Shown here in pieces: positions 18,603-60,300 of a DNA stretch of 64,000 bases (position 1 is the first letter of the stretch; every line of letters starts with the position of its first letter). A program made the position numbers and the translations under genes. The notes under the pieces are model-generated. The model did not search any database. It had not been told where the DNA came from and was given only the letters and a program-made list of their open reading frames with translations. Source of the DNA: an uncultured Caldisericales bacterium (GTDB lineage Bacteria; Caldisericota; Caldisericia; JAAYUI01); NCBI GenBank assembly GCA_964639885.1, contig CAZXEH010000001.1:36893-100892 (forward strand), given 5' to 3'.

Positions 18603-18632
18603 ATGGCGCCTCACAAAGAGGCGCCATTTTTT
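18603..18632. terminator. bidirectional Rho-independent terminator between convergent genes
   Basis: GGCGCCTC-acaaa-GAGGCGCC hairpin followed by a T-run (ATTTTTTAT). An A-run lies on the opposite side. Confidence 0.6.
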
Positions 18633-21266: not shown

Positions 21267-21269
21267 AGA

Positions 21270-21641: not shown

Positions 21642-21685
21642 GAAACACCTCCTGCAAATATTTGATGACCATTGTACAGAAAATA

Positions 21686-21722
21686 AAAAACCGGCGCAAT
21701 GGGCGCCGGTTTTGTCGGTTTT
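21686..21722. terminator. Rho-independent terminator (bidirectional)
   Basis: CCGGCGC-aatg-GGCGCCGG hairpin flanked by AAAAAA upstream and TTTTGTCGGTTTT downstream. Confidence 0.6.
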
Positions 21723-21731
21723 GCTGTCAGA

Positions 21732-23862: not shown

Positions 23863-24228
23863 CTACTTAACTTCGATGGTGCGGATGAACTTGCGAGACC
23901 TGGTGGTGCTGTCCTTGATCAGGATCGTCACGTCGAACTTTCCGGCTTCAAAGGTTTTCTCGATTGGGCCAAGCGTGAGTGACCGCGACTCGAGGGACGC
24001 GCTGGAGCCGTCGCCCCAGTCAACCGAGAGCTTGAACGGCGGGAAAGCCTGGTCGAGCGTGGCAGTCAGGCTGACCGGGACGCTGACGCTGGCGATGCCG
24101 TCGTTAACGCCCTCAAAATCCAGCTGGGCGGTGATGGGGAAGATGACCGGCACGCCGATGAAAGCCCCCGCACCGGAAGGCATGGCGACGATGGCCAGGA
24201 GCGCAAGCGCAACAGAGAGTTTCTTCAT
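23863..24228 (-). CDS. small secreted protein with PKD-like (WGDGS) domain
   Basis: Signal peptide (MKKLSVALALLAIVAMPSGAGA). Motif LSVDWGDGSSASLESRSL aligns with the C-terminus of the giant protein at 36331..40950 (LKVNWGDGSPEELYTMRD). GGAGG RBS before MKKL. Confidence 0.5.
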   Translation of the reverse strand: MKKLSVALALLAIVAMPSGAGAFIGVPVIFPITAQLDFEGVNDGIASVSVPVSLTATLDQAFPPFKLSVDWGDGSSASLESRSLTLGPIEKTFEAGKFDVTILIKDSTTRSRKFIRTIEVK

Positions 24229-24246
24229 GCCTCCGGTGTAGCGCAT

Positions 24247-25941
24247 TTAAAGTTTGGATGCAAGACTGTTATCTATGCCTAATTTACAAACAATATCTTT
24301 TAAATATTTTTCAAGATGAATTTTATCATCATCAGAAAAATGCCAAGATTCGGTTTCTATTTCATCTATACGATTATAAACATTAAACTCATCCTTTTTT
24401 ACTAAACCAAAAATAGAGCAAAAATCACCATACAAAATGGAAACAGTTTCTTCGAATCGATTTTCAAGATAGTCTTTCAAAGATTTTATTTCTCGTAAGG
24501 TATCCGTATCACCTTTGTCGTCATCTAATGCGATGATGTAAGGAATTCCAAATTTATCTAATATTTTTGCATGATTCAATAATTTAGAATTCCCCCTTGA
24601 ATTATAGATACTGATATCATTACTATTTAGATTGTGACCTTGTTTCATCAATAACCAAGGTATGGCAATTCTTTCATTGTAGCCTTCGACTAATAATACT
24701 TTATCGGCAAAGAAAAATTCACGTAGTTCAGGTTCAAGCCTTAATGATGTAAAGAATTCGAAGAAATATTTATCAGAACCCAACACGTCAATTCCCTTTG
24801 ATTTTAGATAGTTTATTGAAAAATCGTATAACCCACTTCCATTATTGCTAACTTTTGTTAACCCGTTTATTTTTGATATGATTCTGAGTGAATGAATGTT
24901 CATAGGATCGATGAAATAAGATGAATGGGTGGAGAGGACTATTTTAAAATTTTTATTGCCCACGATCTCAAATAACTTATCTGAAACAGCTTTTTGTTGA
25001 TGTGGATGCATAAATATTTCTGGCTCTTCAATTAATAATATAAGATTGCTTTTGTTATCCTGTATCTTTTTTGAAGCCAATTGAGTAAATAACAACATTA
25101 TCAGCAATCTTTGTAAACCATGACCTAAATTTGTCCACTCTACAGATTCGATCCATTTATCACTTATTAATAATTGCCTGTCAGTAACCAGTTTTTTTGC
25201 ATCAAAATCAGTTGGAAGATACTCAATATTATTGATATCAGGTATAATTTTTTTCATTTCAGATTTAAGAGAGTTAATTATTTCCAAGGCATCTGTTTCT
25301 GGGATTTCTCGAATTTTCTTCAGCGCTTCGCAAATAATGACATTAATTTTTTCAGTATATGTTTTGCTGAATTTGTCATTTAAAAGTTTTCCGAGTATTG
25401 TTGTATTTGCAGTATTTGTTGCTTCTTTTAATATTGGAATTGCAGATAAATATAGAATATCAAATGGAGGTTTTTTATCGACCCAATCAAACTTACCATT
25501 AACTTCCGCTGTCGACTGGTAGATTTCTTTTTCACCTCCAGAATCAACCCAAATGTTTACCGTTGATCGTTTACTATTATTTCCAATATACTTACTAACA
25601 TCATTTTTAAGTGTTAATTTCTCTGATTCTCCTAAATTGGAAAAAGATTCTAATTCTAATAATTTTGCTTTGTAATCATCCTCTAATCTTTTATTGCATA
25701 TATCTGTTATTTCAAAAATACCTTTGTTAAATGCTTTATTTAGTGCAGTCATTATATTGCTTTTACCAGAATTATTTTTCCCTATCAATATCGTTTGATT
25801 ACTAAGGAATATTTCTAATTTATCTATTGTTCTAAAATTGTTTATTTCAATATGAATGTTATCCTCGGGATTGTCCATACAGCCTCCACAATGTTTATAA
25901 ACAAAATCCCCGAAGATTTCAATACCCTCGGGGATTGGCAA
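24247..25941 (-). CDS. OLD-family nuclease: N-terminal ABC-type ATPase + C-terminal TOPRIM domain (Gabija GajA / class-1 OLD-like)
   Basis: Walker A (ILIGKNNSGKSNIMTAL). Walker B/D-loop (LILLIEEPEIFMHPHQQ). C-terminal Toprim with a conserved Glu (LLVEGYNERIAIPWLL) and DxD (IIALDDDKGDTD). The gene is conspicuously AT-rich (about 25–30 %GC by eye) against GC-rich flanks. An alternative start is at the Met at 25878. Confidence 0.75.
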   Translation of the reverse strand: MPIPEGIEIFGDFVYKHCGGCMDNPEDNIHIEINNFRTIDKLEIFLSNQTILIGKNNSGKSNIMTALNKAFNKGIFEITDICNKRLEDDYKAKLLELESFSNLGESEKLTLKNDVSKYIGNNSKRSTVNIWVDSGGEKEIYQSTAEVNGKFDWVDKKPPFDILYLSAIPILKEATNTANTTILGKLLNDKFSKTYTEKINVIICEALKKIREIPETDALEIINSLKSEMKKIIPDINNIEYLPTDFDAKKLVTDRQLLISDKWIESVEWTNLGHGLQRLLIMLLFTQLASKKIQDNKSNLILLIEEPEIFMHPHQQKAVSDKLFEIVGNKNFKIVLSTHSSYFIDPMNIHSLRIISKINGLTKVSNNGSGLYDFSINYLKSKGIDVLGSDKYFFEFFTSLRLEPELREFFFADKVLLVEGYNERIAIPWLLMKQGHNLNSNDISIYNSRGNSKLLNHAKILDKFGIPYIIALDDDKGDTDTLREIKSLKDYLENRFEETVSILYGDFCSIFGLVKKDEFNVYNRIDEIETESWHFSDDDKIHLEKYLKDIVCKLGIDNSLASKL

Positions 25942-25979
25942 ATGTTTCCAAAAATGTCGGTTTGTGCTATGTTATCTCG

Positions 25980-27230
25980 TCACAGCCCGTACTTCTCGAT
26001 GATCTGATCCTTGGTTTTGCCAAGAATGCCGTACTTTTGGCCGATTTTGGTGAAGGCGTTTATGGCCTTGTCGAGATGCTCCATCTCGTGGCCGGCTGAA
26101 ATCTGAACCCTGATGCGTGCAAGACCCTTGCCAACGACCGGATAGTAGAAGCCGATGACGTAGATGCCTTCGCTGTAGAGGTCTGCGGCGAAGTCCTGGG
26201 CGAGCTTTGCGTTGTAGAGCATGATTGGGACGATGGGATGGACGCCTGGCCTGATGTCGAATCCGGCTGATGTCATCTTTTCCCTGAAGTACTTTGTGTT
26301 TCTTTCCAGCTTGTCGCGGCGCTCGGTGGTGGTTGAGAGAAGGTCGATGACCTTGAGCGCTGCAGCGGCGACCACTGGCGGGATCGTGTTTGAGAACAGG
26401 TATGGGCGCGATCTCTGGCGAAGGAGGTCGATGATCTCTTTCCTGCCCGAGGTTGCTCCGCCTGAGGCTCCGCCAAGGGCTTTGCCAAGGGTGGTTGTGA
26501 TGACGTCGATTCTGCCCATCACGCCGTTGTGCTCATGGGTTCCGCGGCCGGTTTTGCCCATGAAGCCTGTTGCGTGGGAGTCGTCAACCATGGTCATGCA
26601 GTCGTACTTGTCGGCAATGTCGCAGATTTCCTTGAGTTTTGCGACGTCGCCATCCATGGAGAACACGCCGTCTGTTGCGATCATGATGAACCTTACGCCG
26701 TCAGCCCTGGCCTGCTTGCACTTTTCCTCGCAGTCGGCCATGTCGTTGTGCTTGTAGACATAGCGTTTTGCCTTTGAAAGCCTCATGCCGTCGATGATTG
26801 AGGCGTGGTTGAGCTCTTCGGTGACGATTGCGTCCTCTTCCTTGAGCAGCGTTTCAAAAAGTCCGCCGTTTGCGTCAAAGCACGAGGAGTAGAGGATTGT
26901 GTCTTCGGTGCCCAGGAACTCTGAAATCTTTTTTTCAAGCTGTTTGTGGATGTCCTGGGTTCCGCAGATGAAACGGACTGAGCTGAGGCCGTAGCCCCTG
27001 TAGTCCAGACCTTCGTGGGCTGCCTTGATGACGTCGGGGTGGGATGAGAGGCCAAGGTAGTTGTTGGCGCAGAAGTTGAGGGTTTCCTTGATCGGTGCGT
27101 CTTCAGGGAAGCGAACCTTGATGTCTGCCGCCTGTTCGGAAACGATCACCCTTTCATTCTTCCAAAGGCCGGCATCCTTGATTCCGGCAAGCTCTTTTGT
27201 GAGGAATTCTTTCACTTTGCTGTATGCCAT
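25980..27230 (-). CDS. kbl: glycine C-acetyltransferase (2-amino-3-ketobutyrate CoA ligase)
   Basis: PLP-dependent α-oxoamine synthase family; Lys-PLP region [13 protein letters not shown]. Adjacent to tdh. Confidence 0.9.
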
Positions 27231-36330: not shown

Positions 36331-39300
36331 ATGAAGAAGATAGCATTCCTCATTGCTATTGTGCTTTGCATGCAGATGTTTGCAATTCCTGCATTCGCAA
36401 CCAGCAACTCTACAGTCACGCCAGATGATGATTACAAGCCTGCATCCATTATCCTCGATGTCACACAGTGGGCTTCAAGAACAACATCATACTGGACAGA
36501 CCCGCAGTTCCTTACCGAGAGCAGACAGGTCGTCGGCTCAATGATAAGAAACATGGGTTTTGACAGACTTGCCAAAGAAAACCCGGGAAGCGTGATGCTG
36601 CCTGTCGTTTACCATTCAATCAATGGCAAAGTCCAGGTTTCTCCTCCACCGAAAAATATCTCTCTTTCATCAAAAGGTCTCAATCCATTCTCAACAAAAT
36701 CGGTTACAGCGCTCCCATCAGGAACGATCACCTGGGATTTCGTTGGTTCCTGTACCTCTGGCGCACCACTGTCCGGACCACTCTTTGACTGCGCAACCGA
36801 AATGCCTTACATCAATGACTTCATCACGCCGACCGGCTCTGGTTTCTGGACATCAGGCATGAACAACTGCATCCGCGATGTATTTGGTTCTCCGTTCTAC
36901 ACCATCAAGGTTCAGTTTGTCCGTGATGATGCCCTTCCAACCGGTGTTGCCGGCCAGTATTGGTCATCTGGTGGAACGGGTATTGGAAAGATTCACATTC
37001 CAACAGCCATCGCCGCACCACCGAACAATGCACTTTGGGGCGCAACGGTAGGCGAATACATGCTCAACACTCTCACCCACGAAATGATCCACGCCTACTA
37101 CGACGACATGAACCTTTACTATCACGCATGGTCAGAAGGTCTCACTGAATGCCAGGCAGTCCTTGCCAGAAAGCTCTTCTGCCAGAGAAACTCATATAAT
37201 CCGTCAACATTCGTCACTCTCACCTGGGGAATCCCGCCATATGTTGCACAGTACGAACTGTTCAACCAGGAAGGTCTTCCAGGCGCACAGGGTCTCTTCT
37301 ACACAAACGTTTCAGGTGAAAGAATCATCTCTATGATGACTCCACGCTATGGAATGGCTGCAGCCTACTGGTGGAAGATTTACAGGGAAACAATTCCTGT
37401 AAACAGTGGCACAATCGACACTGGTGTTCCGGCAACATATGGTAACCAGGCATTCTTCAGCAATTTCAACGGAATGTTGTTCGACACCTGGTCAACATAC
37501 GCCGGTTCTTTCTCTGCCTACATGAGGGACTGGAACCTTCACAACACACTCGTTGCCAATACTCTTGTCAACGACAAAGGCAACAGTAATGTCGAAAGCA
37601 AGGATTTTGCATCAACATGGTTCGGCCTTCAGGAAATTATCCAGATCAGAACAAAAACCATCCTTCACCTCTACTTCCCGTACGGCCCAATAACACCGAT
37701 GGGCGGACTTACATCTCCAGCCGGAACACAGAACCAGATTTGCGACAATGGAAGCTATTTTGGCGGATTCTCTGGCCCAGGGTATCTTGTTGGTGGCGGA
37801 AACGCCCCATGCCTTTACACAACCCAGCCTGGTGGATTTGAAGTCCCTGCAAATGGTACAGCAACAATTACAGTCACCTCGATGCATGCTTCAGGTCTTA
37901 CAGTTGGTCAGAACGTAACAAACCGCGTGGGTTACAGGCCAGCCTATTCAGGTGCGGCTCCAGGAGCATGGGTTACAATCCCTGCGCTCACATTCTCGTC
38001 AGGTGCCGATGGCAGATATCCGCAGTACAACACAGCCAGCTTTGTCAACCCAGCCGGTTTCTACTTCGGTTGGACCGGTGGACCGGGTGGCGCTCTCCCG
38101 ATCGGTGCATACATGCTCCAAGTCGATGCAGTCTCAGGTGCAAGCACGGCTCAGCAGTTCTGCTATTTCGCCTCTGGATACCAGAACCAGTATTACAACT
38201 CAGGAGTCATCATTGGTTCGGGAACACAGACAGGCGATGTCATGGCTGTCAATCTCAATGGCAGCGCATGGGTGAACCTTCCAGGCGTAACACCGCCATG
38301 GGGCGCACCACCAAGAGCAGCATTCCAGGGCAACTACAACGGTGCCTCATATGCAAACGGTGGCATGATCGGTTACAGATTCAGGGCAAATGGTGCAGCC
38401 TACTACGATTATGACTATGCCAACGGTGGCATGTACTATTATGTAAAGAACTTCGTAACCTCATTCAACAGACTCACGCACACCCTCCCGCCTTATGTTG
38501 GCAGATACGGATTTGCTGTAATCTCCCAGTCAACCGACTTCCTCGGAGCCGCAGACCCAACTGGTGACAATCACGCAGCATTGACGTATTATGAAAAATT
38601 CTGCTCGGAGTCCTCACAGCCATCAACTGCAGGTCTCTCAAGGCTTGTCTACAGACCGGACTACATTCCTGATGGCTCAAGAGTGATTGCCTGCTTCCTC
38701 TACGCCAATACTGTCGGACGCAATAACGGTGGTGTTTACGAAGAGAGACCATTGAGAGTCAGAACCGGGACAGATGCAAATTGGCACGATGTTTATGGTC
38801 TCTTCCTCGGCCGCGACGATGAACCTCTCAGAAACTCTACAGGGTCATGTGCTTGCGGTGGATGGGCTCCATACCAGTCAACATTCAGATTCGACCTCAC
38901 ACCGTACATCACAGGATGCTACGACACAATCAGAATCAACAACCTGTACCAGGCGTATGAGCCAAACGGCCAGCAGTTGTTCTACGGCTTCGAGATGGTT
39001 CTTGTCTATGAGAATCCAACACTCGAATACTCACAGATTATGATCGCTGACGGCGCACTCAGAATCTGTGCAAACGAAAGAACTCAGGATGCAACAACAT
39101 TCACAGGCTTCAGAACTCCTCCAACGCCAGCAACCTGGCCAAGAGACAAATCAAGAGCCTCAGCATACATGGCAATCCTTGGCAACTCAGCCGACAATGG
39201 CTCGGGTGGAGCTGGCAGGGTCAACAATGAATGGGACTTCTGGGCAGTAGGTTCCGACAAGTACACAATGGACAGAATCTGGATCAACCCGGAACCAGCC

Positions 39301-40950
39301 GATCCCGTTTCGTCACAATCTGGTGCTTGGTATTCGCCAGGTGATATTAATGGATTATTACCAACATGGACTGGTCCGACAACTGTTACGAATTATAACT
39401 GCGCAGCAAGACCAACCGATTTCCCTAACCCCTATTTCTATTGGTCACGACCAATAGATAACAACGTTGCCAATTTCACAAATTATTGGGGTGGTTCACA
39501 ATCCTGCAAACAATTCAGCTCTGCATGGTTCTGGAACAATAATTTTACGACCGTTGCCAACAAGACTGCGATCGTCTGGGAAAACGGTTCATGGTGGGAT
39601 GTTGTAAACTCTGACTATTCAGGAGCCGTTCACAACACCAACAGGACATACCTTGCAGGTGATGACACCTCTATTACTGTCAGACCGTATATGGTCTGTT
39701 CAAATGCAACAGCAGGTGCAGCAGGATACGCTGATGGTTTTGGCCCATGTGTCGCGACCTGGCGAGGCAATCAAACGAATAATAACTGTCAGGCACCAGT
39801 CGGTACAGATTACTGGGCAAGATCAGATGAACGTGGACACCTTCAGGCAATCATCCTTCAGGTTCCAATCGTCCCGTCACTTGAGATCACAAAGACAGGC
39901 GTGCCAGACCCAGTTCTTCCTGGCAACCTCCTCACCTACACAATCACCGTCAGAAACTCAACCCCATACAGAAGCAATGGCGTTCACGTAATCGAAACCT
40001 ATCCGGCAGGAGTCCAGTTCTACGATGCAAACCCACCGGCAGACATCAACAACAATGAGTGGACAACATCAATCGGTACAAACGGCGATGGCTCACTCAA
40101 TCCGAACGAAGAGGCAATCATAGTTGTCAGACTCAAAGTCGGCAAACTCGCCAAAGGTACAAAGCTTACAAACCTTGTAATGGCCTACTCAGAAACCTCA
40201 CCTGCACCGGTTTACGCAGAAGAGACCAACACAGTCCTTGGCGAACCAAAACTGACAATCACAAAATACACAAAGCGTTTCATGGCTCTCCAGGGCGAAA
40301 AGGTCAAATTCTACATCACAGTCAAAAACGTTGGCGATCGTGAAGCAACTGGCGTCTCAATCTTTGACCTTCTTCCACGTGAGTTCATGTATGACTCATC
40401 ACTTCCATCAGGATCAGTCGGCCTCCAGAAGATTTACTGGGCAGTCGGCACACTCAATCCAACAGAAAGCTACACAATCGAACTCATCCTCAAGGTCAGG
40501 GATGACATCACGATCAACCCGGGCACAACCCTCACAAACACAGCCTTTGCGACAAGCCTTGAAGACCTCTTTGTCCAAGACACAGCAGTTCTCATGGTCA
40601 GAGCCGGTGGCAAGGAACCGATCGTCTGCGCAAAACCAGACGTCAGCCTCATTGTCGAAGGCCTCAAGCCAGTCCAGGAAAAAGACGGACTCTACTGGAT
40701 GTTCAAGTCAGGCCAGGAATACAAGATCAGCGTAAAGGTCTATGACAACGGCGGATGCAGCCCATACGAACTCAAAGTCAACTGGGGCGACGGCTCACCA
40801 GAAGAACTCTACACAATGAGAGACGGCGATTCGGTAATGCTCAAGGATCTCAAACCGCACTCATTCACATCAGGCGAAAAGATTTCGATCAGCCTCAAGA
40901 ACCGATACGACGGCCAGTACGAATCAATCTTCAAGTACAAAATCCAGTAA
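36331..40950 (+). CDS. giant secreted surface protein (1539 aa): HExxH metalloprotease-like motif, two DUF11 repeats, C-terminal PKD-like domain
   Basis: Signal peptide (MKKIAFLIAIVLCMQMFAIPAFA). HEMIH at TLTHEMIHAYYDD. DUF11-like repeats (LEITKTGVPDPVLPGNLLTYTITVRNS...; LTITKYTKRFMALQGEKVKFYITVKNVGD...). C-terminal VNWGDGS. Gly/Tyr/Asn/Trp-rich central region. Confidence 0.7.
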   Translation: MKKIAFLIAIVLCMQMFAIPAFATSNSTVTPDDDYKPASIILDVTQWASRTTSYWTDPQFLTESRQVVGSMIRNMGFDRLAKENPGSVMLPVVYHSINGKVQVSPPPKNISLSSKGLNPFSTKSVTALPSGTITWDFVGSCTSGAPLSGPLFDCATEMPYINDFITPTGSGFWTSGMNNCIRDVFGSPFYTIKVQFVRDDALPTGVAGQYWSSGGTGIGKIHIPTAIAAPPNNALWGATVGEYMLNTLTHEMIHAYYDDMNLYYHAWSEGLTECQAVLARKLFCQRNSYNPSTFVTLTWGIPPYVAQYELFNQEGLPGAQGLFYTNVSGERIISMMTPRYGMAAAYWWKIYRETIPVNSGTIDTGVPATYGNQAFFSNFNGMLFDTWSTYAGSFSAYMRDWNLHNTLVANTLVNDKGNSNVESKDFASTWFGLQEIIQIRTKTILHLYFPYGPITPMGGLTSPAGTQNQICDNGSYFGGFSGPGYLVGGGNAPCLYTTQPGGFEVPANGTATITVTSMHASGLTVGQNVTNRVGYRPAYSGAAPGAWVTIPALTFSSGADGRYPQYNTASFVNPAGFYFGWTGGPGGALPIGAYMLQVDAVSGASTAQQFCYFASGYQNQYYNSGVIIGSGTQTGDVMAVNLNGSAWVNLPGVTPPWGAPPRAAFQGNYNGASYANGGMIGYRFRANGAAYYDYDYANGGMYYYVKNFVTSFNRLTHTLPPYVGRYGFAVISQSTDFLGAADPTGDNHAALTYYEKFCSESSQPSTAGLSRLVYRPDYIPDGSRVIACFLYANTVGRNNGGVYEERPLRVRTGTDANWHDVYGLFLGRDDEPLRNSTGSCACGGWAPYQSTFRFDLTPYITGCYDTIRINNLYQAYEPNGQQLFYGFEMVLVYENPTLEYSQIMIADGALRICANERTQDATTFTGFRTPPTPATWPRDKSRASAYMAILGNSADNGSGGAGRVNNEWDFWAVGSDKYTMDRIWINPEPADPVSSQSGAWYSPGDINGLLPTWTGPTTVTNYNCAARPTDFPNPYFYWSRPIDNNVANFTNYWGGSQSCKQFSSAWFWNNNFTTVANKTAIVWENGSWWDVVNSDYSGAVHNTNRTYLAGDDTSITVRPYMVCSNATAGAAGYADGFGPCVATWRGNQTNNNCQAPVGTDYWARSDERGHLQAIILQVPIVPSLEITKTGVPDPVLPGNLLTYTITVRNSTPYRSNGVHVIETYPAGVQFYDANPPADINNNEWTTSIGTNGDGSLNPNEEAIIVVRLKVGKLAKGTKLTNLVMAYSETSPAPVYAEETNTVLGEPKLTITKYTKRFMALQGEKVKFYITVKNVGDREATGVSIFDLLPREFMYDSSLPSGSVGLQKIYWAVGTLNPTESYTIELILKVRDDITINPGTTLTNTAFATSLEDLFVQDTAVLMVRAGGKEPIVCAKPDVSLIVEGLKPVQEKDGLYWMFKSGQEYKISVKVYDNGGCSPYELKVNWGDGSPEELYTMRDGDSVMLKDLKPHSFTSGEKISISLKNRYDGQYESIFKYKIQ

Positions 40951-40965
40951 GGTTCAACCATCACA

Positions 40966-40998
40966 AAAGACCCCCGTTAACCGGGGGTCTTTTTCTTT
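40966..40998 (+). terminator. Rho-independent terminator
   Basis: GACCCCCG-gttaa-CGGGGGTC hairpin followed by TTTTTCTTTTT. Confidence 0.7.
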
Positions 40999-41025: not shown

Positions 41026-42609
41026 ATGAGGACGGTTGGGATTTGGGCAATTCTGTTTTGCCTTCTGATTTCGGGTTCCGGTGTAGCAGGGGAGCTTTGC
41101 AATTGGCCAATGTTTCGGGGTGACAAGGCAAGGTCTGGCGTTTGCCAGTCCGAGTGCATGCCCAAAACCAACGATTTGTTGTGGACTTGTCAAACTCAGG
41201 GAGCCGTCGAGAGTTCGCCTGCAATTGTCGATGGAAAAGCCTACGTTGGTTCATTTGATGGCCATCTTTACTGCATTAATCTGGAAACAGGGAAACCTGA
41301 CTGGAAGTATCAGGCAACCGGTGGCGTGAAATCCTCTCCTTGTGTAGATGCTGAGAAGGTCTATTTCGGATCAACGAACCAAACAAACGGCAAGGGCGGT
41401 TTTTACTGTCTGAACACGAAAAGTGGGGACTTGATCTGGAAGCTGGATTTGCCATTAAAAGTTGACTCGTCGCCTCTGGTTGTTGGTGACAAAGTCGTTT
41501 TTGGCTGTGGTGATGACAACCTTTACGGCGCAAACAAAGAGAATGGCGATATTGTCTGGACTTGTCAGACGGAAGGTGCGATTGATTCAAGTCCTTCGTA
41601 TGATGGTGGCAGGATTTATGTTGGAAGCACCGATAACAATCTCTACTGTGTTGACGAAAATGATGGCTCAGTGCTCTGGAGCTTCAAAACTTTGGATGAC
41701 ATCGTTTCAACGCCTGCCATAATCAACGATTTGGTGTGTTTCGGGTCGATGGATAAAAGGGTTTATGCACTCGACAAGGTTTCAGGAAAGCTCAGATGGA
41801 AGTATGAAACCAAAGGATTTGTTGAATCCTCACCGGCGTTTGTCAACGGCAACATCGTGATTGGGTGTGACGACTACAGCCTTTATTGCCTGGATTCCGC
41901 CACTGGCAAACTCGAGTGGAGATTTTCGACCACAGAAGACAAGATAGTTTCATCCCCTACCGTTGTTGGTGATTATATACTTGTAGGAACCTGAGACTCT
42001 AACCTCTACTGCCTGGATGGCGGTACCGGCAAAATGCTTTGGAAGCACCACACAAACGGAGTGGTCAGGTCGTCGCCTGCTGTTGGCAATGGCAGGATTG
42101 TGTTTGGGTCGTACGATAATGTTGTTTATTGTTTAGGCGAGAAATCGATCGAAAATCCTACACCGCCCACGCCGGAACCGCCAAAACCCGAGCCTCCAAA
42201 ACCGCCGGAGAAAAAGACTATGAAGCTTGAATTCTGGCTGGATCGGAAAACATACACAGTTGACGGTGTGACCAAAGAGATGTCGGTCAAACCTTTTGTT
42301 TTCAAGGGTTCAACGATGCTGCCGGCAAGATATCTGGTCGAAGGCATTGGCGGAACCGCAACCTGGCTACAAGAGCAGAAAATGGTTGAGTGCAGGACTG
42401 ACAGGCATACGCTCAGGATGTGGGTTGGCAAAGGCACGGCTGAGCTTGATGGTGTTGAGGTAGCAATTGGCAAGGACGCTTCTGTCAATCCTCAGATTGT
42501 TGACGGTCGCGTGTTTGTTCCGTTCCGTTTCCTCGGCGAGTCGCTTGGATGTGTTGTCGAGTGGGATGCTGGTGAGAAAAGGATGAGTCTTGTTTATCAA
42601 TCGGAATAA
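41026..42609 (+). pseudogene. PQQ-repeat beta-propeller (BamB-like) + Pro-rich linker + copper-amine-oxidase-N-like stalk domain, interrupted by an in-frame TGA at 41992–41994
   Basis: Seven or more PQQ-type repeats (G.[FT]D..LYC[LIV][DN]..[TS]G...W). ORFs 41026..41994 and 42034..42609 are in the same frame. The TGA falls inside the repeat VGT*DSNLYCLD. PTPPTPEPPKPEPPKPP linker. C-terminal MLPARYLVEGIGG...VPFRFLGESLGCVVEWDAGEKRMSL module. Confidence 0.6.
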
Positions 42610-43661
42610 TTATACTTTTTTTTCATGAAATCATGAACTTCATATGAATATTCTAATTCTTTATAAACGTTATCTATATCTTGTTCTTTTAATTTGTCAA
42701 AACTTAAGTGGCTTAAGTATTCTGGCGCTGAATCAGACCCAAAAAGAGCTTTCCAGATATCTAATGTGTATTGGCATAAATCAAATAACAATTCCTCAGC
42801 AATTATTAGCCACTCATTGCTTTTCTTATAAAGGAAATCATTATTAGACGATATGTCAAAATGACTTATTTTATGTCTACTTTCAATATTTTTATCTAAT
42901 CGGTGATACTTTTGCTTAAAAATCGACCAATCCTTGTTAAAATTAGTTAAATCAAAATTATTAATGATTAGAAAACCTTTTTTGAAAATATCGTGACTAG
43001 ATTTATCGTTAGGATATAATTCTTTATATTTATTGATATGTTTATTAAATTCTTTTATGCTATTACTCATTTTCGCATTGATGTTTGTGTCATTAATCAT
43101 TGATTCTAGAAAACAATTTGTGAAGTTTAAAATGCTGAGAATTGACTGAATAGCATAATTTGCACAAAAGGTATTTGCGTTTGTTTTATAAAGTATTTCC
43201 TTTGTTGGCGAAGAAAAATTAGGCATTATATTTTCATAATACTGTCGATAATAAAAGGCTTTAAGGTATAACATTATTGAAAAGTGGAGAAAAATGTTTT
43301 CCTCATTTAATATACTTACATTACCCTTAAAAATTGATATATGCGACCTTTTTGGTAAATCTTTAGGTATATAGCGACAATTAATAACATCAACATAAAT
43401 TAATAATTCTGAAAGTTGAAATCCCTTTATCTGAGACGAAGTTTTTAATAAACTTGCTTTATCTTCTAAATAATATGCTAAATCATGAAGAGTTTTGTTT
43501 GGATTTATAGGCAAGAATTTTTTTGCTTTTTCTAGCAGTAACAAGTGTAAATCTTGAGGAAGACTTATTGACTTTTCTGAATAAATCCTGATTCTGTCTA
43601 GTTCATTATTTAATAAACAATAAAAAGAAATATAAATAAGCTCCTGCTGAAGTATATCCAT
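42597..43661 (-). CDS. hypothetical protein, AT-rich orphan (354 aa) with Rx4H (HEPN-like) motif
   Basis: Strong compositional contrast (about 25 %GC by eye). Lys/Asn/Ile-rich. The motif ESRHKISHFD contains R-x4-H. No secretion signal. Confidence 0.45.
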   Translation of the reverse strand: MDILQQELIYISFYCLLNNELDRIRIYSEKSISLPQDLHLLLLEKAKKFLPINPNKTLHDLAYYLEDKASLLKTSSQIKGFQLSELLIYVDVINCRYIPKDLPKRSHISIFKGNVSILNEENIFLHFSIMLYLKAFYYRQYYENIMPNFSSPTKEILYKTNANTFCANYAIQSILSILNFTNCFLESMINDTNINAKMSNSIKEFNKHINKYKELYPNDKSSHDIFKKGFLIINNFDLTNFNKDWSIFKQKYHRLDKNIESRHKISHFDISSNNDFLYKKSNEWLIIAEELLFDLCQYTLDIWKALFGSDSAPEYLSHLSFDKLKEQDIDNVYKELEYSYEVHDFMKKKYNYSD

Positions 43662-45905: not shown

Positions 45906-46481
45906 GTGCAAATATCGGGAATGAATCTGGGACTTGCTTTTGGCAGGGCGAAGGTGTTTGAAAACCTCAGCTTCAGGGCTGACGGTGGAACATGGCTTGT
46001 CAAAGGTGCAAACGGTTCAGGGAAAACCTCGCTTTGCAGGATTATTGCCGGATTGATGAGACCGACAAAAGGCGAGTTTTCTTGGTTCGATGGCAAAAGC
46101 CTTGAAAGGCACGACCTCGTTGGCAGGATAGGATTTGCCACTCCAGAAATGGGTCTTTTTGAGGATCAGACTGTAAATTCAAACATAAAGCTCTTTGAAA
46201 CGCTTGCCAATGCAAAGCTGGATGATTCATTCGGGGTATCAAGGCATGGCGGGAAGCTCCTTGGCGAGCTTTCAAGCGGATGGAAGCAAAGATTGAAGCT
46301 GCTTGTTGCCTTCCTGGGAGATCCCGAACTTCTTGTGCTTGATGAACCAGAGCAGCATCTGGATGATGAGGGGATTTCGATTCTTACTGATTTGATTGCC
46401 AGAAGGGACAAACTGACAATTGTCTCCACAAACAACCCGTGGATGAAACTTGAGACTTTGGTTGATCTGGGGTCAAAGTGA
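45906..46481 (+). CDS. ccmA: heme exporter ABC ATPase CcmA
   Basis: Walker A (GANGSGKTSLCRI). Signature/Walker B region (LSSGWKQRLKLLVAFLGDPELLVLDEP). Start is ambiguous: GTG 45906 or ATG 45921. Confidence 0.75.
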   Translation: MQISGMNLGLAFGRAKVFENLSFRADGGTWLVKGANGSGKTSLCRIIAGLMRPTKGEFSWFDGKSLERHDLVGRIGFATPEMGLFEDQTVNSNIKLFETLANAKLDDSFGVSRHGGKLLGELSSGWKQRLKLLVAFLGDPELLVLDEPEQHLDDEGISILTDLIARRDKLTIVSTNNPWMKLETLVDLGSK

Positions 46482-47128
46482 AGACATTTGCAGCGCTTTT
46501 CAAACTCGAAACTGGAACTGCCTTCAGATCAAAACAGATGCTTGGGCTGGGTTTGTCTCTGGCGCTGGCTTTCTCGATTGCTGTTGCCTTTCCGCTCTCC
46601 TCTGAGCAGCTTTCTCCAAAAATAGCCTCGGCCTTGATTTGGATGATCATGTTCTTCTCTTCCTCGGATCAGGCTTACAGGACTTTTTTAAGGGATGAGG
46701 AGCGTGGAACGGCGGATCAGCTAAGGTTGCGGGTAAGCTCAGGCACGGTTTTTCTGGCAAAGGTCGCCTCCAACGCCCTGATGCTTGCTGTTATCGGTTT
46801 TGCTTCATCGCTGATCCTTTCTGTCTGGCTGAAGGTTGAAGTTTCAAGGATACCGGCTGTCACTCTCTCCGTTGTGGGAGGTTCGGTTGCGCTTGCCATC
46901 TCCCAGGGAGCGGTTGGGTTTCTGCTTGGGTTTGGCAAAGGCGGTGGCTCGTTTTATCCGCTTGTGGTCATGCCTGTTGTTCTGCCATCACTTGTTTCTT
47001 TAATCGTCATAACCTCGACGTGTATTGAAGGGGTCGTCGTTTCGCTTAATCTTGTTATCGTGGTGTGCGCATTGTCGCTGGCCATTTTGACGGCTGGAAT
47101 CACACTGCTGCCACACATTGAGGTATAG
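46478..47128 (+). CDS. ccmB: heme exporter permease CcmB
   Basis: About 216 aa with six hydrophobic segments. Position is between ccmA and ccmC. Overlapping start. Confidence 0.7.
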   Translation: MKTFAALFKLETGTAFRSKQMLGLGLSLALAFSIAVAFPLSSEQLSPKIASALIWMIMFFSSSDQAYRTFLRDEERGTADQLRLRVSSGTVFLAKVASNALMLAVIGFASSLILSVWLKVEVSRIPAVTLSVVGGSVALAISQGAVGFLLGFGKGGGSFYPLVVMPVVLPSLVSLIVITSTCIEGVVVSLNLVIVVCALSLAILTAGITLLPHIEV

Positions 47129-47746
47129 ATGATATACGCTTCGATTGCCATTTTGATACCATCGATTGCATACTGCCTTTTCTATGCACCTGCGGAAGCA
47201 ACGCTGGGCGAGGTTTACAGGTCAATCTTCTTCCACATCCCGTGTTCGTGGGGGGCGGTGCTGGCGTTTCTGGTTTCGCTGGTTTTCTCAATTCTTGTGC
47301 TCATAAGGAGAAAGCCTGAGCATGACTTTTACGCTCACAGGTCTGCTGAGATCGGGCTCCTGTTTGCTCTGCTTGCAACAATCACCGGCTCAATCTATGC
47401 CGGTGCGACATGGGGCAGTTACTGGAACTGGGATCCGCGAGAGGTTTCGATTGTTTTCCTCATTCTTATCTATCTGGCTTACCTTGGCATCAGATCTGCG
47501 GTTTCAAATCCGATCAAACGTGCAAGAATAGCTGCCGGATACAATATTATCGCCACCATCACCATGCCGTTTCTGGTTTTCATCTACCCGAGGATCATGC
47601 CTTCGCTGCACCCTGAAACTGTAGGCGGTCTGGGACTTCCAAAAACAATGTATTTTGGGCTTCTGGGCATGGTTGCCGGCATCACTCTGCTTTACATCTC
47701 GATGCTCAAAATGGCCGTCAGAATCGACAAGGAGGCAATATGCTGA
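47129..47746 (+). CDS. ccmC: heme exporter protein CcmC
   Basis: WWD domain (WGSYWNWDPRE). Confidence 0.85.
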   Translation: MIYASIAILIPSIAYCLFYAPAEATLGEVYRSIFFHIPCSWGAVLAFLVSLVFSILVLIRRKPEHDFYAHRSAEIGLLFALLATITGSIYAGATWGSYWNWDPREVSIVFLILIYLAYLGIRSAVSNPIKRARIAAGYNIIATITMPFLVFIYPRIMPSLHPETVGGLGLPKTMYFGLLGMVAGITLLYISMLKMAVRIDKEAIC

Positions 47747-47844
47747 CCGTGCTCATCGTTGCTGTCGTCATGCTTGCTGGAATATTGACATACTTCATCA
47801 TCCTGGACAGGCGACTGAAATCGCTTGAGAACCATGAAAAATAG
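47740..47844 (+). CDS. ccmD: heme exporter protein CcmD (34 aa)
   Basis: Small TM peptide (MLTVLIVAVVMLAGILTYFIILDRRLKSLENHEK). Overlaps the ccmC stop (ATGCTGA). GGAGG RBS. Confidence 0.5.
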   Translation: MLTVLIVAVVMLAGILTYFIILDRRLKSLENHEK

Positions 47845-48196
47845 GGCAACCCTCATTGGTCTCATCGTCGCAGCCATTTTGGCCGGGATCGCCATCTGGG
47901 CGTTCTCGTCGACAGTAGTTCCCTACACGCACGATTTTAATGAGGCTAAGTCCGGCAAATACATCCAGGTCTACGCAAAGATAGACAAAACATCAATTGA
48001 AACCGATACCTTCATGGTTACCGATGAAAAGGGTCTTGAGATGCAAATCCTTGCCCTTAAGGGGATTCCGCAGAACCTGACACAAGCTCAATATTGCGTT
48101 GCACTCGGACGGTTCAATAAGGGGAAAAACATGTTCGAGGCTGAATCGATCCTCGTAAAGTGCCCGTCAAAATATGAGGAGCAGAATACCCCCTGA
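47834..48196 (+). CDS. ccmE: cytochrome c-type biogenesis heme chaperone CcmE
   Basis: N-terminal TM anchor plus the CcmE OB-fold region. Position in operon. Confidence 0.75.
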   Translation: MKNRATLIGLIVAAILAGIAIWAFSSTVVPYTHDFNEAKSGKYIQVYAKIDKTSIETDTFMVTDEKGLEMQILALKGIPQNLTQAQYCVALGRFNKGKNMFEAESILVKCPSKYEEQNTP

Positions 48197-48259
48197 GGGC
48201 TTGAGAAATCGGCGCAATCTGCTAAAATTAGCAAACAACGTCAATTTCTGGAGTGTGAA

Positions 48260-50356
48260 ATGCCTGCACAGATTTGCCTCTATGTTCTCCTCGCTTTAGC
48301 TGTTTCGGGCATTGTTTTTTCCAGACAATACAAGGTCTCAATCTGGATTGCATGGATTCAGCTTGGTTTGTCAGGCTTCATTTTTTTGTTCCTCGCAAAC
48401 GCCCTGCTCAAAGGCAGCTTTGGATACCAGTACGTTTTCCACAACTCCGAGAAGGCGCTTTCAACGATCTATAAAATATCAGCCATCTGGTCCGGCGATT
48501 CAGGATCATTGATCCTTTGGATGCTCATGGTCTCAGTGCTTGTCCTTGTTTGTGCGAGACTTGGCGAAATGTTCAGAGCAGCAACAAACACCTCATATGG
48601 ACTGCTGTTTTTCATTGTTCTGCTGGTAATCCTTGGCCAACCTTTCAAGGCTGTTGTGCCAGTTCCGATTGATGGAATGGGTCTTTCACCGCTTCTGCAA
48701 AATCCGTGGATGGTCTCTCACCCGCTGGTTGTTTTTGCCTCCTACGCACTGCTTGCGATTCCGTTTGGATTGACTGTGCAATATCTTCTCAAGCCAAGTC
48801 CACAGGTTCAGGGCGAGTGGCGGAAAAATATTTTGCAATGGGTTCTTGGATCATGGTTTTTTCTTGGTCTCGGGATACTCCTTGGCGCCATCTGGGCTTA
48901 TGATACGCTTGGCTGGGGCGGTTACTGGGGTTGGGATCCTGTTGAAAACTCGTCGCTTGTGCCCTGGCTTCTGCTGACTGTTTCCGTTCACGCACTGCTC
49001 ATCGACGAAGGCACAAACAACGGATCAAAGGCTGCAGCTTCAAGCATCCTCGCCTCTTTCCTGACCATGATTGCAGCGGTTTTCATCACAAGGTCAGGCG
49101 CACTATCTGAGATGTCGGTGCACACTTTTTCAGGCTCAGACCTGGCTTTCTGGATCATCCTCGCCGGTTTTGCCGTTGCGCTTGGTTTCTCGGTTTTCTC
49201 GATGATCAAGGGCTGGAAGCTGACACCAAACACTGACCAGGCCGACTGGACATCAAAACCGTTCACAATCGGCATCGCAAATATTGCGACAACCGTTTTT
49301 GCCATAGCTGTACTGGTTGGGACTTTCCTGCCGATGTTTGGCGGACAGTCGCTGAGCAGGATTTACTATCAGACCGTTATGGTTCCGGTGGCGTCAATAA
49401 TGCTGCTTGGTGCTGGTATTGCACCGATGCAGGCCTGGAAGGCGACCGGATTGAAGCAATTGGTCAGGAAAATGATTCTTCCTCTGATGATTGCAGCCGG
49501 AACAATCCTGACCTTCCCGCAAAACGGCGATTGGTTGATGCTTATCGTCGGACTTTTTGCCTGTTTGGTTGTTGGCACAAATATCGTTGCGATGGCCAGC
49601 GTATCTATCAAAAAATGGGGCTCATACCTTTCACACATCGGGCTTGGTCTGCTTGCTGCCGGAATCCTGGTTTCATCAATTGTTCAAGACACAAAGATTT
49701 TGCCGATGACCAGAGGTGTGCAGCAGGACTTCTTTGGTTTTGCCACAAAAATAACCAGCTTTGCTGAGAGTCAGTCCGGCGATACATTTTCAGCCCAATA
49801 TGAGATGAATTATAAAAACGAGAAAATAATCGGAACTGTAAGTGGCAAGTGGGATAGAAAAGCCTCGCAGTGGATTATGGAGCCGTCGATAAACAGATCG
49901 GTTCAAAGAGACGTTATTTTCGTGGTCTCGAACATGTCTGAAGGACAGATATTCGACATGAGGGAAGCCAAGATATCAGAGCGCAATGGCTATAAGCTGG
50001 AAGTTGTCGCAATTGACGAAAAGCAGGCTGAGGTCTGGATAACGGATGGCAAGGAGAAGATGCACCTTGTTGCTCCATACGATGAAGAGAACCCTAAACC
50101 GGTGACGATTTCTCCTAATCTTGAGGTCATGTATCGGGGTGATGGCACCTTTTACTTGAAAGATATTCGTGATGATCGTCCAGGAACATTGAAATTCTCG
50201 GTTTCGGTTTCGATCAGGTATTGGACTTTCTTCCTCTGGCTCGGAGGTTTGGTTTTATTGGCTGGTATTCTCTGGGCCTTGTTTTTCAGAATCTTCAAGC
50301 CAAAAAGGCTTGCCCTCATTGGTGCCGTGAAGGTTGAGGCCGTTCAGACATGGTAA
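48260..50356 (+). CDS. ccmF: cytochrome c-type biogenesis protein CcmF (698 aa, extended C-terminus)
   Basis: WWD domain (YDTLGWGGYWGWDPVEN). Multi-TM. Roughly 130-aa soluble C-terminal extension. Confidence 0.8.
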   Translation: MPAQICLYVLLALAVSGIVFSRQYKVSIWIAWIQLGLSGFIFLFLANALLKGSFGYQYVFHNSEKALSTIYKISAIWSGDSGSLILWMLMVSVLVLVCARLGEMFRAATNTSYGLLFFIVLLVILGQPFKAVVPVPIDGMGLSPLLQNPWMVSHPLVVFASYALLAIPFGLTVQYLLKPSPQVQGEWRKNILQWVLGSWFFLGLGILLGAIWAYDTLGWGGYWGWDPVENSSLVPWLLLTVSVHALLIDEGTNNGSKAAASSILASFLTMIAAVFITRSGALSEMSVHTFSGSDLAFWIILAGFAVALGFSVFSMIKGWKLTPNTDQADWTSKPFTIGIANIATTVFAIAVLVGTFLPMFGGQSLSRIYYQTVMVPVASIMLLGAGIAPMQAWKATGLKQLVRKMILPLMIAAGTILTFPQNGDWLMLIVGLFACLVVGTNIVAMASVSIKKWGSYLSHIGLGLLAAGILVSSIVQDTKILPMTRGVQQDFFGFATKITSFAESQSGDTFSAQYEMNYKNEKIIGTVSGKWDRKASQWIMEPSINRSVQRDVIFVVSNMSEGQIFDMREAKISERNGYKLEVVAIDEKQAEVWITDGKEKMHLVAPYDEENPKPVTISPNLEVMYRGDGTFYLKDIRDDRPGTLKFSVSVSIRYWTFFLWLGGLVLLAGILWALFFRIFKPKRLALIGAVKVEAVQTW

Positions 50357-57248: not shown

Positions 57249-57326
57249 TCCATTATATCAAAACCCCAGTTTTTATAAAACCTGTTCCTATTGCCATCAG
57301 GCCTTTTAATGCTATTATTGAACAAA

Positions 57327-60300
57327 ATGAACGTTGCCGGCAGATATGAACTGATCGAAAAGATTGGCGAGGGGGGAATGGGCGAGGTTCACATGGCCCT
57401 CGACCTACAAACGGGAGAAGTTGTAGCTGTCAAGATTTCCAACATGTGGCAAGCCAGGGATCGCGAAGCGATGAATGAAAGGTTTGCCAGGGAAATAGAA
57501 ATCCTTTCCAGAATAAACCATAAAAACATTGTCAGATTCAAGGATTCCGGTTCAGGTGATGATTACATGTTTTATGTCATGGAATTCATACCTGGCCAGC
57601 CTATTTCAAGGATCGGCGACTATCTCAAATCCACAAGGCACATCATCCAGATTGCCGAGGCACTGGACGAAATCCACAGTAAGGGCATCATCCATCGGGA
57701 CTTGAAACCATCGAACATTTTGGTCACGGAGGGTGAAATAAAGCTGCTAGATTTTGGAATTGCCCATATCACCGAGCGATCGGCAATGATGACAAAGGTT
57801 GGAACTTTTATTGGAACAGCCGAGTACATGTCACCCGAACAGGTCATGTGTTCAGGACTGGATGAACGTTCTGACATCTACTCGCTTGGAACGGTGCTTT
57901 ACGAGGTTCTCACCGGAAGGCCACCTTTTGTTGCGCCTGACATCATCACCCTCATCCACAAAGTGATTCAGGAAAGACCGATTCCGCCTACGCAAATTGA
58001 CAATGCAATCCCGCAGGGACTGGAGCTAATCTGTCTGAAGATGCTTGAGAAAAGGTCGGAAAGACGATACCAGACTGCAAGAGAACTGATCTCTGACCTG
58101 GTGCAGTTCGTGGAGGGTGTGGTTCCGTCTCAGAAACTGTCTTTCAATTATCTCAGCAGAGAGTCACCATTCATTGGCAGGAAGGATATTTTTGCAGCCT
58201 TTTCCGAGTTGATTGCCAATGTTGTCAATGGTTTGGGTCAGTCGCTCGAGCTGGTCGGAGGAATCGGATCAGGCAAGACAAGGACACTGGCTGAACTTCA
58301 ATCGCTGTCGCTCTCGAGGTATGTAAGGTTTCTTGTCTGTGACAACAACATCGTTGAACCTGGATCGCTCTCGATTACATCACTGCTTGATTCGCTTTCA
58401 GATTATGAGATCAATGTCGAGCCGGAGTTTGTCCTGGCGCATGCCCAGCTCATCCGCTCCCTGTCAGAAAAACTTGCCAGCAGACTTAATCTTCCACCTG
58501 ACGCCCAATCGCAGAATGAAGGAAACCAGGCGCCATACATCATAGCAGACCTCCTCCTGAAGGCTTTCCCGGGGATACCGGTGGTTTACGCATTTGACAG
58601 CAACATTGATCCATTCACCCAGAAGGTTGTTGAGATTCTTGTCGGTTCGGCCGAGTTCTCCAGAGTGCTTGTCGTCAGTGCCGTCAACTTGCACCAGAGT
58701 CTCGAGTTCACTAAATCTTTTGAGCTGAAACCTTTGACAAGCGAGGAAATGTCTCAGCTAGCAGAGAGAATTCTTGGCCGATCAATCAGTGGCGAAGAAC
58801 TGGCTTCGCTTTCTTCACGAACAGGCGGCAATCCGCAGTTTGCCTTTGAGCTGATCAGAGAGTCGAGGGACGCAAGAAAGACCATAACTTTAACCTCACT
58901 GCCCGAATCACTCTCAGATCTTCTTGGCAGGAAGATTTCCGAGATCAGTGAGGATTCAAGGAAAATCCTGTCCAAACTTTCGCTGCTTTCAACGCCAATG
59001 CCGATATATGAGCTCCAGGTTTTGCTCGGTATTGAAGAAGTCAAGCTGAGGATGTCATTGCAGGATTTGTTTGGTGAGGGACTCATTGTTGAAAGATTAG
59101 CCGGTTCAGAATTTGTTGTGGAAATCAGCTCCGGCGCGCTTGCTGAAGTCATCTGCGGCATGATTCCCGAAACAATCCTGCCAGGACTTCATTTAGAAAT
59201 TGCCTTTGCCCTTGAGCTGCTAAATCCTGGCAAGTATGCGTTCGTCATAGGTTCGCACTATTTTGAGGCCGGAGACGCAGAAAAAGGCTCGAAATACATG
59301 CTTGAAGCGCTGAAAGAATCATACGGACACCAGCAAAACAGAAAGGCCGAACTCTGTTCATCAATTCTCATGCCTCACCTTGATGAGATCAGGGACGACA
59401 CGCTCAGATACAACTGTTATTATTTCAGCACAAGAAGCCTTGTCAGTGCAGGTAAACTTACCGAATCGGCAAGTTTGATTCTGAAATTTTCGGAATCACT
59501 GTCGAAGATGAAGGCGACCAATGAGATGTGGATGAACTTCCATATCTGCGAAATGGCACTGTATCTTGGCATGAGGAACATCGAAAAACAGCTCAAGGCT
59601 GCAATGGAGGCCCTCAAAAGGTTTGACCGGACGATTCCAAACGGGTTGAGATCGACTGTTTACTACTACATTGCTTCGGCCTACATCAACCTTAGCCAGC
59701 CTGAAAAAGGTGTTCCGTTTGCAAAAAAGGCTATCGAACTTGCACAAACTTCCCAGGAACGCTTTATGGCCAGAAACATACTTTCAATCGGTTATGCAAA
59801 GCTTTCAAAGTTGGACGAGGCTATTCAGCTTCAAGAAACAATAATAAACGAAGCCCAGCGTGAGAACCAGATCAATACGGAACTGGCAGCAAGGTTCAAC
59901 CTGTCAACATTTTACACGAATCTTGGCAAAGTGGAGCAATCTAATGCACTGGTCAAAGAAGTCCTGGATAAATCGATAATACACCACTATGACATCATCA
60001 CTGCAAATTCGTATTTAAAAGTAATAATAAACAACAACGTTCTGATGAGAATCAAGGACAACAAGAACCTCATTGACGACTGCGTTCTTTTCTTCGAGAG
60101 AAAAAACCTCAAGACAAACATTGTCCATATCTACCAGCAAGGCGTACTTGTCAGCCTGCTTGAAAAGAATCATCAGAAATTTACAACAATGCTCGAAAGA
60201 CTCAAGAAGGAAGCCGTAGCAATGAAGCTTAGGGCTTACATCGTCGTTTGCGACATCCTCAAGTCAGATGAGATTGTCGAAAGAAAAGAATGGCAGGAGT

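Follow-up and report, generated by a model that had tools for sequence, protein, structure and literature searches.

The locus studied here raises the question of how a stop codon can persist in the middle of a protein domain whose coding sequence continues undisturbed behind it. The analyzed window is a stretch of 64,000 nucleotides (nt) from an uncultured Caldisericales bacterium (contig CAZXEH010000001.1, positions 36,893 to 100,892), and the gene in question, located at 41026–42609 (+), represents one frame of 528 codons that encodes a β-propeller protein and features a lone internal stop, the TGA at 41992–41994 (codon 323). Our results indicate that this in-frame UGA is almost certainly read through, being neither a mutation nor a sequencing error, and that the locus is a genuine, ancient recoding site. 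A long-kept UGA within a domain, purifying selection on both sides of it, and a conserved stem-loop at the canonical distance, its small apical loop containing G, are the signature of bacterial selenocysteine (Sec) insertion; hence, programmed UGA recoding by this pathway is regarded, with moderate confidence, as the most likely mechanism, and the propeller probably represents a new selenoprotein family in Caldisericia.

Translation of 41026–42609 confirmed that the open reading frames (ORFs) 41026..41994 and 42034..42609 share a common frame and belong to an otherwise continuous 528-codon gene, as had been stated in the preliminary description of this DNA (context of codon 323: ...YILVGT*DSNLYCLDGGTGK..., the asterisk marking the TGA). 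Read as a complete recoded gene, 41026..42609 (+) ends with TAA after 527 sense or recoded codons; gene callers predict two separate products of 322 and 191 amino acids (aa). The conceptual full-length protein starts with an N-terminal signal peptide (MRTVGIWAILFCLLISGSGVAG, 41026..41091 (+)), which was recognized from the sequence and forms a helix (residues 2–16) in the AlphaFold2 (AF2) model, its exact end and cleavage site being putative. The signal peptide is conserved in two of the orthologous lineages introduced below (L003 and L016) and hydrophobic in a third (L018). It is followed by an eight-bladed β-propeller of the PQQ-like (BamB/YxaL) type (residues ~27–372, 41104..42141 (+)), as deduced from Pfam, AF2, and Foldseek, by a linker rich in Pro, Glu, and Lys (residues ~373–397, 42142..42216 (+)), apparent from its composition and from low values of the predicted local distance difference test (pLDDT), and by a C-terminal Cu_amine_oxidN1 (‘stalk’) domain (residues 411–521, 42256..42588 (+); Pfam match of 2.6e-26).

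The statement that repeats, linker, and C-terminal domain continue normally past the TGA was borne out, since Pfam matches span the stop and the propeller is continuous in the AF2 model. The spanning matches are Beta-prop_ACSF4 (PF13570; 1e-78, 265.5 bits at a cut-off of 133) and PQQ_2 (PF13360; 8.6e-49, 166.7 bits at a cut-off of 27.6), both beyond the curated threshold. Counting of the repeat motif SSP...G[ST]xD..LY.LD..tG...W also resulted in eight blades, and the TGA occupies the x position of G[ST]xD..LYCLD between strands B and C of blade 7. The AF2 model, based on 45 sequences, showed a closed eight-bladed propeller with pLDDT values of ~98 on either side of residue 323; according to this model, a product ending at the UGA would be short of 1.7 blades. 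The closest solved folds identified by Foldseek were the designed protein Cake8 (template modeling (TM) score of 0.95 on the target), tetrathionate hydrolase, BamB, and YxaL, and the nearest solved quinoprotein reached a TM score of 0.56 at 18% identity. In the Pfam scan of the propeller protein, the quinoprotein dehydrogenase profile PF01011 was matched merely at positions 51–86 of 595. The protein is a member of the PQQ-like/BamB-type family and not a quinoprotein dehydrogenase; its conserved Cys residues are C25, C40, C44, and C329. Taken together, the gene most likely encodes one functional secreted protein of 527 residues, the UGA at codon 323 being decoded and not used as a stop.

Orthologues were reached via a genome scan, an exhaustive protein search with the C-terminal ORF, and a cluster listing. 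Together with the window, they come from at least ten datasets and fall into five distinct lineages, namely L003, L016/L017, L018, L011–L014, and the window itself, to which L001, L002, and L015 are identical. The comparison of orthologues at this site, as proposed in the preliminary description, revealed the TGA at the identical codon in 5/5 lineages. No sense-codon orthologue was found among the matches listed in two protein-database searches or in the cluster listing, and six out of six protein variants in two 90% clusters were fragments starting past the stop. Records of the 322-aa N-terminal product exist on two contigs, one from JGI (3300022666, L001) and one from Logan (SRR6476076, L002), both being 100% identical to the window. 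L003, an uncultured Caldisericales metagenome-assembled genome (MAG) detected in the scan of species-representative genomes, shares 86–92% DNA identity with the window and features the same TGA, with substitutions relative to the window on either side of it, at −7 and +8. The search with the C-terminal ORF led to P0126 (MBP7733190.1, ‘Caldisericia bacterium’), a protein of 185 aa with 59% identity, whose syntenic contigs (L011, representing the Caldisericia MAG GCA_017999835.1, and L012–L014) read ...FILVGS*DGNLYCLDGGTGK... with the TGA at the same codon. L015, L016/L017, and L018 were obtained from the protein cluster listing, and all of them carry the TGA. L018 holds the entire upstream propeller of the divergent clade to which L011 belongs; its protein identity to the window is 57%, and synonymous sites between the two are saturated (proportion of synonymous differences, pS, 0.78). 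The whole-protein search was dominated by multi-blade propellers with at most 43% identity among the matches listed, and two metagenome scans with peptide patterns returned distant PQQ proteins only. The UGA is, thus, of ancient origin and occurs throughout this gene family.

Translation continues beyond the UGA, or the sequence there is at any rate under selection for coding. For the pairs window/L003, window/L016, and L003/L016, the ratio of non-synonymous to synonymous substitution rates (dN/dS, Nei–Gojobori) amounted to 0.11 upstream and 0.08–0.11 downstream of the TGA. Downstream, the window and L003 differ by 47 synonymous vs. 18 non-synonymous changes, whereas neutrality predicts ~15 vs. 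50 (calculated from the numbers of synonymous and non-synonymous sites). Further stops or frameshifts were absent in all lineages examined. From the TGA to the ATG at 42034, a distance of 39 nt, only one synonymous difference separates the window from L003, compared to ~8 differences calculated for an untranslated, neutrally evolving stretch.

The preliminary description had seen no obvious hairpin resembling a Sec insertion sequence (SECIS) directly downstream of the stop; this statement has to be revised. A perfect hairpin of 7 bp with the 5-nt loop UGGAU (UACUGCC-UGGAU-GGCGGUA, 42007..42025 (+); −9.6 kcal/mol in the minimum free energy fold) begins 12 nt past the UGA, the distance from the UGA to the loop being 19 nt, and is extended by pairing of C42003/C42004 with G42028/G42029. 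The only change in its apical stem in any lineage is from G-C to G-U (L018). The consensus model of bacterial SECIS elements (bSECIS) by Zhang and Gladyshev, quoted in PMC13188914, demands a loop of 3–9 nt, a stem of 4–16 bp, a G in the first two loop positions, a spacing of 16–37 nt, and an energy of ≤ −7.5 kcal/mol, and the hairpin lies within every one of these limits. The window contains 3006 TGA triplets; when a simple scoring rule was applied to them, any qualifying hairpin accompanied 2% and an equally stable one 0.9%. At the seven equivalent positions of the other blades, no qualifying hairpin was found (0/7; best value −4.4 kcal/mol).

The hairpin is conserved at synonymous sites, as deduced from cross-clade comparison of codons (conservation zone 42003..42077 (+)). 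Considering codons for identical amino acids, 20 out of 23 are the same between the window and L011 in the 28 codons past the UGA vs. 51 out of 135 elsewhere in the gene (Fisher p 1e-5); the corresponding values for L018 are 17/23 vs. 99/254 (Fisher p 1.2e-3). Synonymous-codon identity after the UGA, therefore, reaches 87% (L011) and 74% (L018), as opposed to 38–39% elsewhere, and the peak of a sliding scan across the whole gene is the 28-codon window starting at the UGA codon. Near-invariant nucleotide blocks across both clades extend from 42001 to 42029 and from 42040 to 42077, and strongly diverged patches lie immediately before and after the UGA as well as at 42030–42039. Since diverged patches beside the TGA break up the conserved blocks, a recombination tract was discarded as the source of this local similarity; such patchy conservation fits selection on specific nucleotides.

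Around the apical hairpin, RNAalifold predicted for the five sequences a 76-nt element (41992..42067 (+)) with an enclosing basal helix, in which the UGA (41992–94) and ACUCU (41996–42000) pair with GGAGU (42058–62) and UCA (42065–67). The pair 41998/42060 varies by lineage (U-A, U-G, G-U, and G-C) and retains pairing throughout, and two further pairs of the predicted element change from C-G to U-G. In the predicted structure, 97.6% of the cells are paired vs. 26–54% if the partners are slid by 1–3 columns. The 76-nt structure is compatible with these data, but not proven by covariation, as outlined below.

According to the Sec reading, the mRNA 3′ of the UGA would fold into a SECIS-type stem-loop while the ribosome reads the UGA, the apical hairpin (42007–42025) being situated within the predicted ~76-nt structure whose base would include the UGA itself. 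The stem-loop would then recruit SelB-GTP-Sec-tRNA(Sec), and Sec would be placed in the B-C turn of blade 7, a turn which, judging from general propeller topology, should be exposed on one propeller face. The inserted residue would then be Sec, and SelB and tRNA-Sec (selA, selB, selC, and selD) would be expected to be encoded in the genomes concerned. Of the features by which selenoprotein genes are recognized, those acting in cis are present, namely conservation of the UGA, an uninterrupted coding sequence beyond it, a hairpin of the bSECIS type, and constraint at the RNA level.

Several observations weigh against this reading. Among synonymous recodings of the same amino acids, 7.6% yield a qualifying hairpin and 4.1% an equally stable one; taken alone, the hairpin is, therefore, weak and only suggestive evidence. 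With 4–8% of the recodings giving such a hairpin, the case rests mainly on synonymous-site conservation across the clades. Covariation within the 76-nt element was not significant for the five sequences (53 out of 500 shuffles attained the observed score), and an Rfam scan of 41800–42300 with E-values up to 10 returned meaningless matches to long non-coding RNAs and no SECIS family. Furthermore, Cys-containing homologues and a redox motif, two other hallmarks of selenoproteins, are missing. The TGA had been described as occupying a variable repeat position, which proved correct: the aligned position in 115 distant homologues is among the most variable of the repeat (including V16, D14, H13, A9, E8, N7, W4, and C1, besides Y and others), and Cys occurs at this repeat position in 2 out of 702 blades, compared to 4% of blades for Trp. 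The one Cys homologue among the 115 (P0108) equals the chance expectation. P0108, a JGI metagenome protein of 568 aa, features the Cys in the same blade at residue 353 (GSCDSKIYCLN vs. GTUDSNLYCLD); it is the single candidate Cys counterpart and is compatible with chance. No motif of the CxxU/UxxC type was found in the context VG[TS]-U-D[SG]NLYC, the nearest Cys being located at +6 in the next β-strand.

The genomic context likewise speaks against Sec. Neither sel genes nor tRNA-Sec were present in the 64-kb window or in ~20 kb of extra flanking sequence, where tRNA-His is the sole tRNA. Caldisericum exile, the only cultured member of the order, is listed with zero selenoproteins and lacks SelA, SPS, and ybbB (supplementary table of PMC4561486), and the core functions given for Caldiserica do not include Sec utilization (PMC9751293). 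These two statements, both negative, were all that was found in the literature on Sec in Caldisericota, and no selenoprotein family of the PQQ or propeller type was found in the reviews and database papers searched.

Among the four options considered in the preliminary description, Sec and readthrough remain viable, whereas a recent nonsense mutation and a sequencing error had to be discarded. A possible, though rather unlikely, explanation is that the UGA is sometimes decoded without involvement of selenium (Se) by a near-cognate or specialized tRNA, most plausibly by tRNA-Trp(CCA) inserting Trp. The downstream RNA structure might stimulate such an event, and the stop might serve as a built-in attenuator allowing for little full-length protein. 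The evidence of an old, selected, and translated-through UGA applies equally to this explanation. TGG to TGA is one transition, Trp is tolerated at the position (4/115 aligned homologues and 4% of blades), and a variable position devoid of Cys homologues fits a non-catalytic residue; C. exile, moreover, lacks any marker of Se utilization. Variants of tRNA-Trp(CCA) that read UGA have been found in diverse bacteria (PMC13092985), which counts in favor of readthrough. Conversely, the combination of a UGA and a neighboring hairpin corresponds exactly to the signal for Sec in bacteria. Of the nine single-base changes of TGA, eight lead to a sense codon and the position is tolerant, yet no lineage has reverted, which suggests that the UGA itself is selected. 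The base at +4 is G, which is not known to be the leakiest UGA context in E. coli and follows the TGA in 3 out of 23 tallied TGA-ending ORFs, the tally including the internal TGA of the propeller gene. Furthermore, we know of no chromosomal bacterial gene with structure-stimulated UGA readthrough that does not involve Sec. A more specific alternative, which is considered unlikely, assumes that the Sec machinery is absent as in C. exile and that the conserved RNA structure drives Se-independent programmed readthrough, or an unknown type of recoding, within the domain. To our knowledge, a structure-driven signal for Se-independent readthrough inside a domain of a chromosomal gene has not been described in bacteria.

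It is very unlikely that the locus represents a conserved split gene, in which the UGA ends translation and reinitiation or internal initiation, e.g., at ATG 42034, yields the C-terminal part as a second polypeptide. Gene callers predict just such a split, and a weak Shine–Dalgarno-like GGCGGU is located 9 nt before ATG 42034, its duplex with the anti-Shine–Dalgarno sequence (−6.2 kcal/mol) being close to the median of the window genes. However, the divergent clade B has GTT in place of ATG 42034 and offers no possible start before a GTG 22 codons past the stop, so that reinitiation at 42034 is not a conserved feature. In addition, the 13 codons from the stop to ATG 42034 are as conserved as coding sequence. 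The downstream piece possesses no signal peptide, though Cu_amine_oxidN1 belongs to exported proteins, and the break lies inside blade 7, so that, judging from the AF2 model, neither piece should be able to close a propeller; two separate polypeptides, thus, make little structural sense.

That the TGA is a functionless nonsense lesion, i.e., that the gene is a pseudogene or the product of an assembly or sequencing error, is highly improbable. A single internal stop is the commonest type of disabling lesion, and the L011–L014 allele may be truncated at its 5′ end, since its homology ends ~260 nt upstream of the TGA, where the Logan contigs L012 and L013 also start. Against a sequencing or consensus error, the same TGA occurs in at least ten independent datasets obtained with different assembly pipelines; against a recent nonsense mutation, it is common to lineages with saturated synonymous divergence, the excess of synonymous over non-synonymous changes downstream deviates strongly from neutrality, and dN/dS is low there. 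Additional disabling lesions, which would support a pseudogene, were found in no lineage, the sequences of four lineages covering ~525 codons, and L018, from the clade of L011, features an intact upstream part. The pseudogene reading is, therefore, refuted for the window gene, and the divergence of the lineages excludes one recent clone. As regards L011, its sequence is 100% identical to L018 3′ of L011:540, 70–77% identical at L011:120–330, and unrelated before ~L011:110; the independent Logan contigs L012 and L013 begin at L011:98. The 5′ region of L011 is either a mosaic or 5′-truncated allele or the result of a repeat-induced assembly break.

Lineage-wide reassignment of UGA (genetic codes 4 or 25), suggested by nothing else than a conserved gene holding an in-frame UGA, is refuted and carries practically no probability, because TGA ends 27 out of 54 long ORFs in the window and the propeller gene alone continues beyond one. 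Among the true stops of the window, TGA is the most frequent, with overlapping ATGA/GTGA junctions among its occurrences, in agreement with its earlier description as a genuine stop elsewhere, and no other gene in the 64 kb shows a long coding continuation past a TGA. Consequently, the standard genetic code applies, and the propeller gene is a real exception. A trio of same-frame ORFs at 20631–22745 (−) was rejected as a case of recoding, since the genes are unrelated: the stretches separated by TGA correspond to a Cu_amine_oxidN1 protein, a 153-codon open stretch without a match, and an HhH-GPD glycosylase. Their agreement in frame was judged to be a coincidence.

The surroundings of the propeller gene were also inspected. 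Directly 5′ of it, a 1539-aa DUF11/CLIPPER-repeat protein is encoded at 36331–40950 (+), followed by its own strong terminator (40965–40993); the propeller gene starts 32 nt past the end of the terminator stem. It is devoid of a recognizable Shine–Dalgarno sequence, whereas GGAGG precedes many genes of the window. The Cu_amine_oxidN1 tail is found on four proteins of the window (18631–19602 (−), 19613–20278 (−), 21732–22745 (−), and 41026–42609 (+)), which suggests that it is a general module of this organism for anchoring proteins to the cell surface. On the 3′ side, an ORF of 354 aa with a GC content of ~37% (42597–43661 (−)) shares 13 nt with the end of the propeller gene and obtained no match in Pfam, NCBIfam, or PADLOC. 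It is absent in L003 and L015, where a 3-hydroxyacyl-CoA dehydrogenase gene directly follows the propeller gene, and its place is occupied by an unrelated ORF of 165 aa in L011; the spot looks like a variable insertion spot.

Farther away, an OLD-family ATPase/TOPRIM nuclease is encoded at 24247–25941 (−) (PADLOC ‘Old’, 5.5e-50, also GajA-like; Pfam AAA_15 and OLD-like_TOPRIM) within a sharply AT-rich island (24001–26000, GC content of 34%), probably representing an acquired anti-phage defence gene. A cluster for system I cytochrome c maturation (45906–50356 (+)) comprises ccmA, B, C, (D), E, and F, followed by a gene for a 529-aa protein of unknown family, and is syntenic in the window, L003, and L011, the three lineages with enough flanking sequence. 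At 57291–60920 (+), a Ser/Thr protein kinase of 1209 aa is encoded, the kinase being its only recognized domain; many distant homologues of the propeller are kinase-propeller fusions, as seen among the matches listed in the whole-protein search.

If the Sec reading is true, the propeller represents a new selenoprotein family, namely a secreted β-propeller that does not resemble an oxidoreductase, carrying Sec in a surface turn and having no Cys counterparts. Standard searches for Cys/Sec pairs overlook such Cys-less cases by design. Sec decoding would, moreover, have to exist in Caldisericota, a phylum in which the sole species in culture lacks genes for selenium utilization, and the annotations (two ‘proteins’, one of them named after the C-terminal domain) would be wrong in every carrier genome. 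If it is not Sec, the conserved UGA and the structure would point to a structure-assisted signal for readthrough in bacteria, an outcome that would be even more surprising. In both cases, the locus offers a compact (~80 nt), conserved recoding cassette that is open to experiment.

Compared to known systems, the propeller gene resembles the selenoprotein mRNAs of the E. coli fdhF/fdnG/fdoG type in featuring an in-frame UGA conserved among orthologues and a stem-loop immediately 3′ of it within the ORF. The UGGAU loop, the 7-bp upper stem, the spacing of 19 nt, and the synonymous constraint over the element also correspond to bacterial SECIS mRNAs, as does the predicted location of the UGA in the base of the RNA structure. 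In contrast to bacterial selenoproteins, the propeller does not belong to a known family of selenoprotein oxidoreductases, lacks Cys homologues and a CxxU-type motif, and would, as a secreted protein, carry its candidate Sec in a surface turn that is variable; there is no SECIS match in Rfam, and the only cultured species of the host phylum is devoid of the Sec machinery. As a protein, it shares with the PQQ-like/BamB/YxaL propellers (PF13360 and PF13570) Pfam scores far above the threshold, eight blades, and a superposing AF2 model, and differs from them in its C-terminal Cu_amine_oxidN1 domain and its in-frame UGA. Unlike PQQ-dependent dehydrogenases, it shows just a short partial PF01011 match and no sign of dehydrogenase activity or PQQ binding, and unlike BamB, it belongs to the monoderm-like envelope context of Caldisericia and is not a lipoprotein of the BAM complex. 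Leaky UGA decoding via tRNA-Trp, as known for phage Qbeta A1 and for tRNA-Trp variants (PMC13092985), is similar in that readthrough yields a functional longer product and Trp is acceptable, whereas in these systems a protein that is already complete gains a minor extension at its C-terminus, or UGA is reassigned throughout the genome. In the propeller gene, by contrast, the UGA lies in the middle of a domain and is followed by a conserved RNA structure, and a protein ending at this stop should be of no use.

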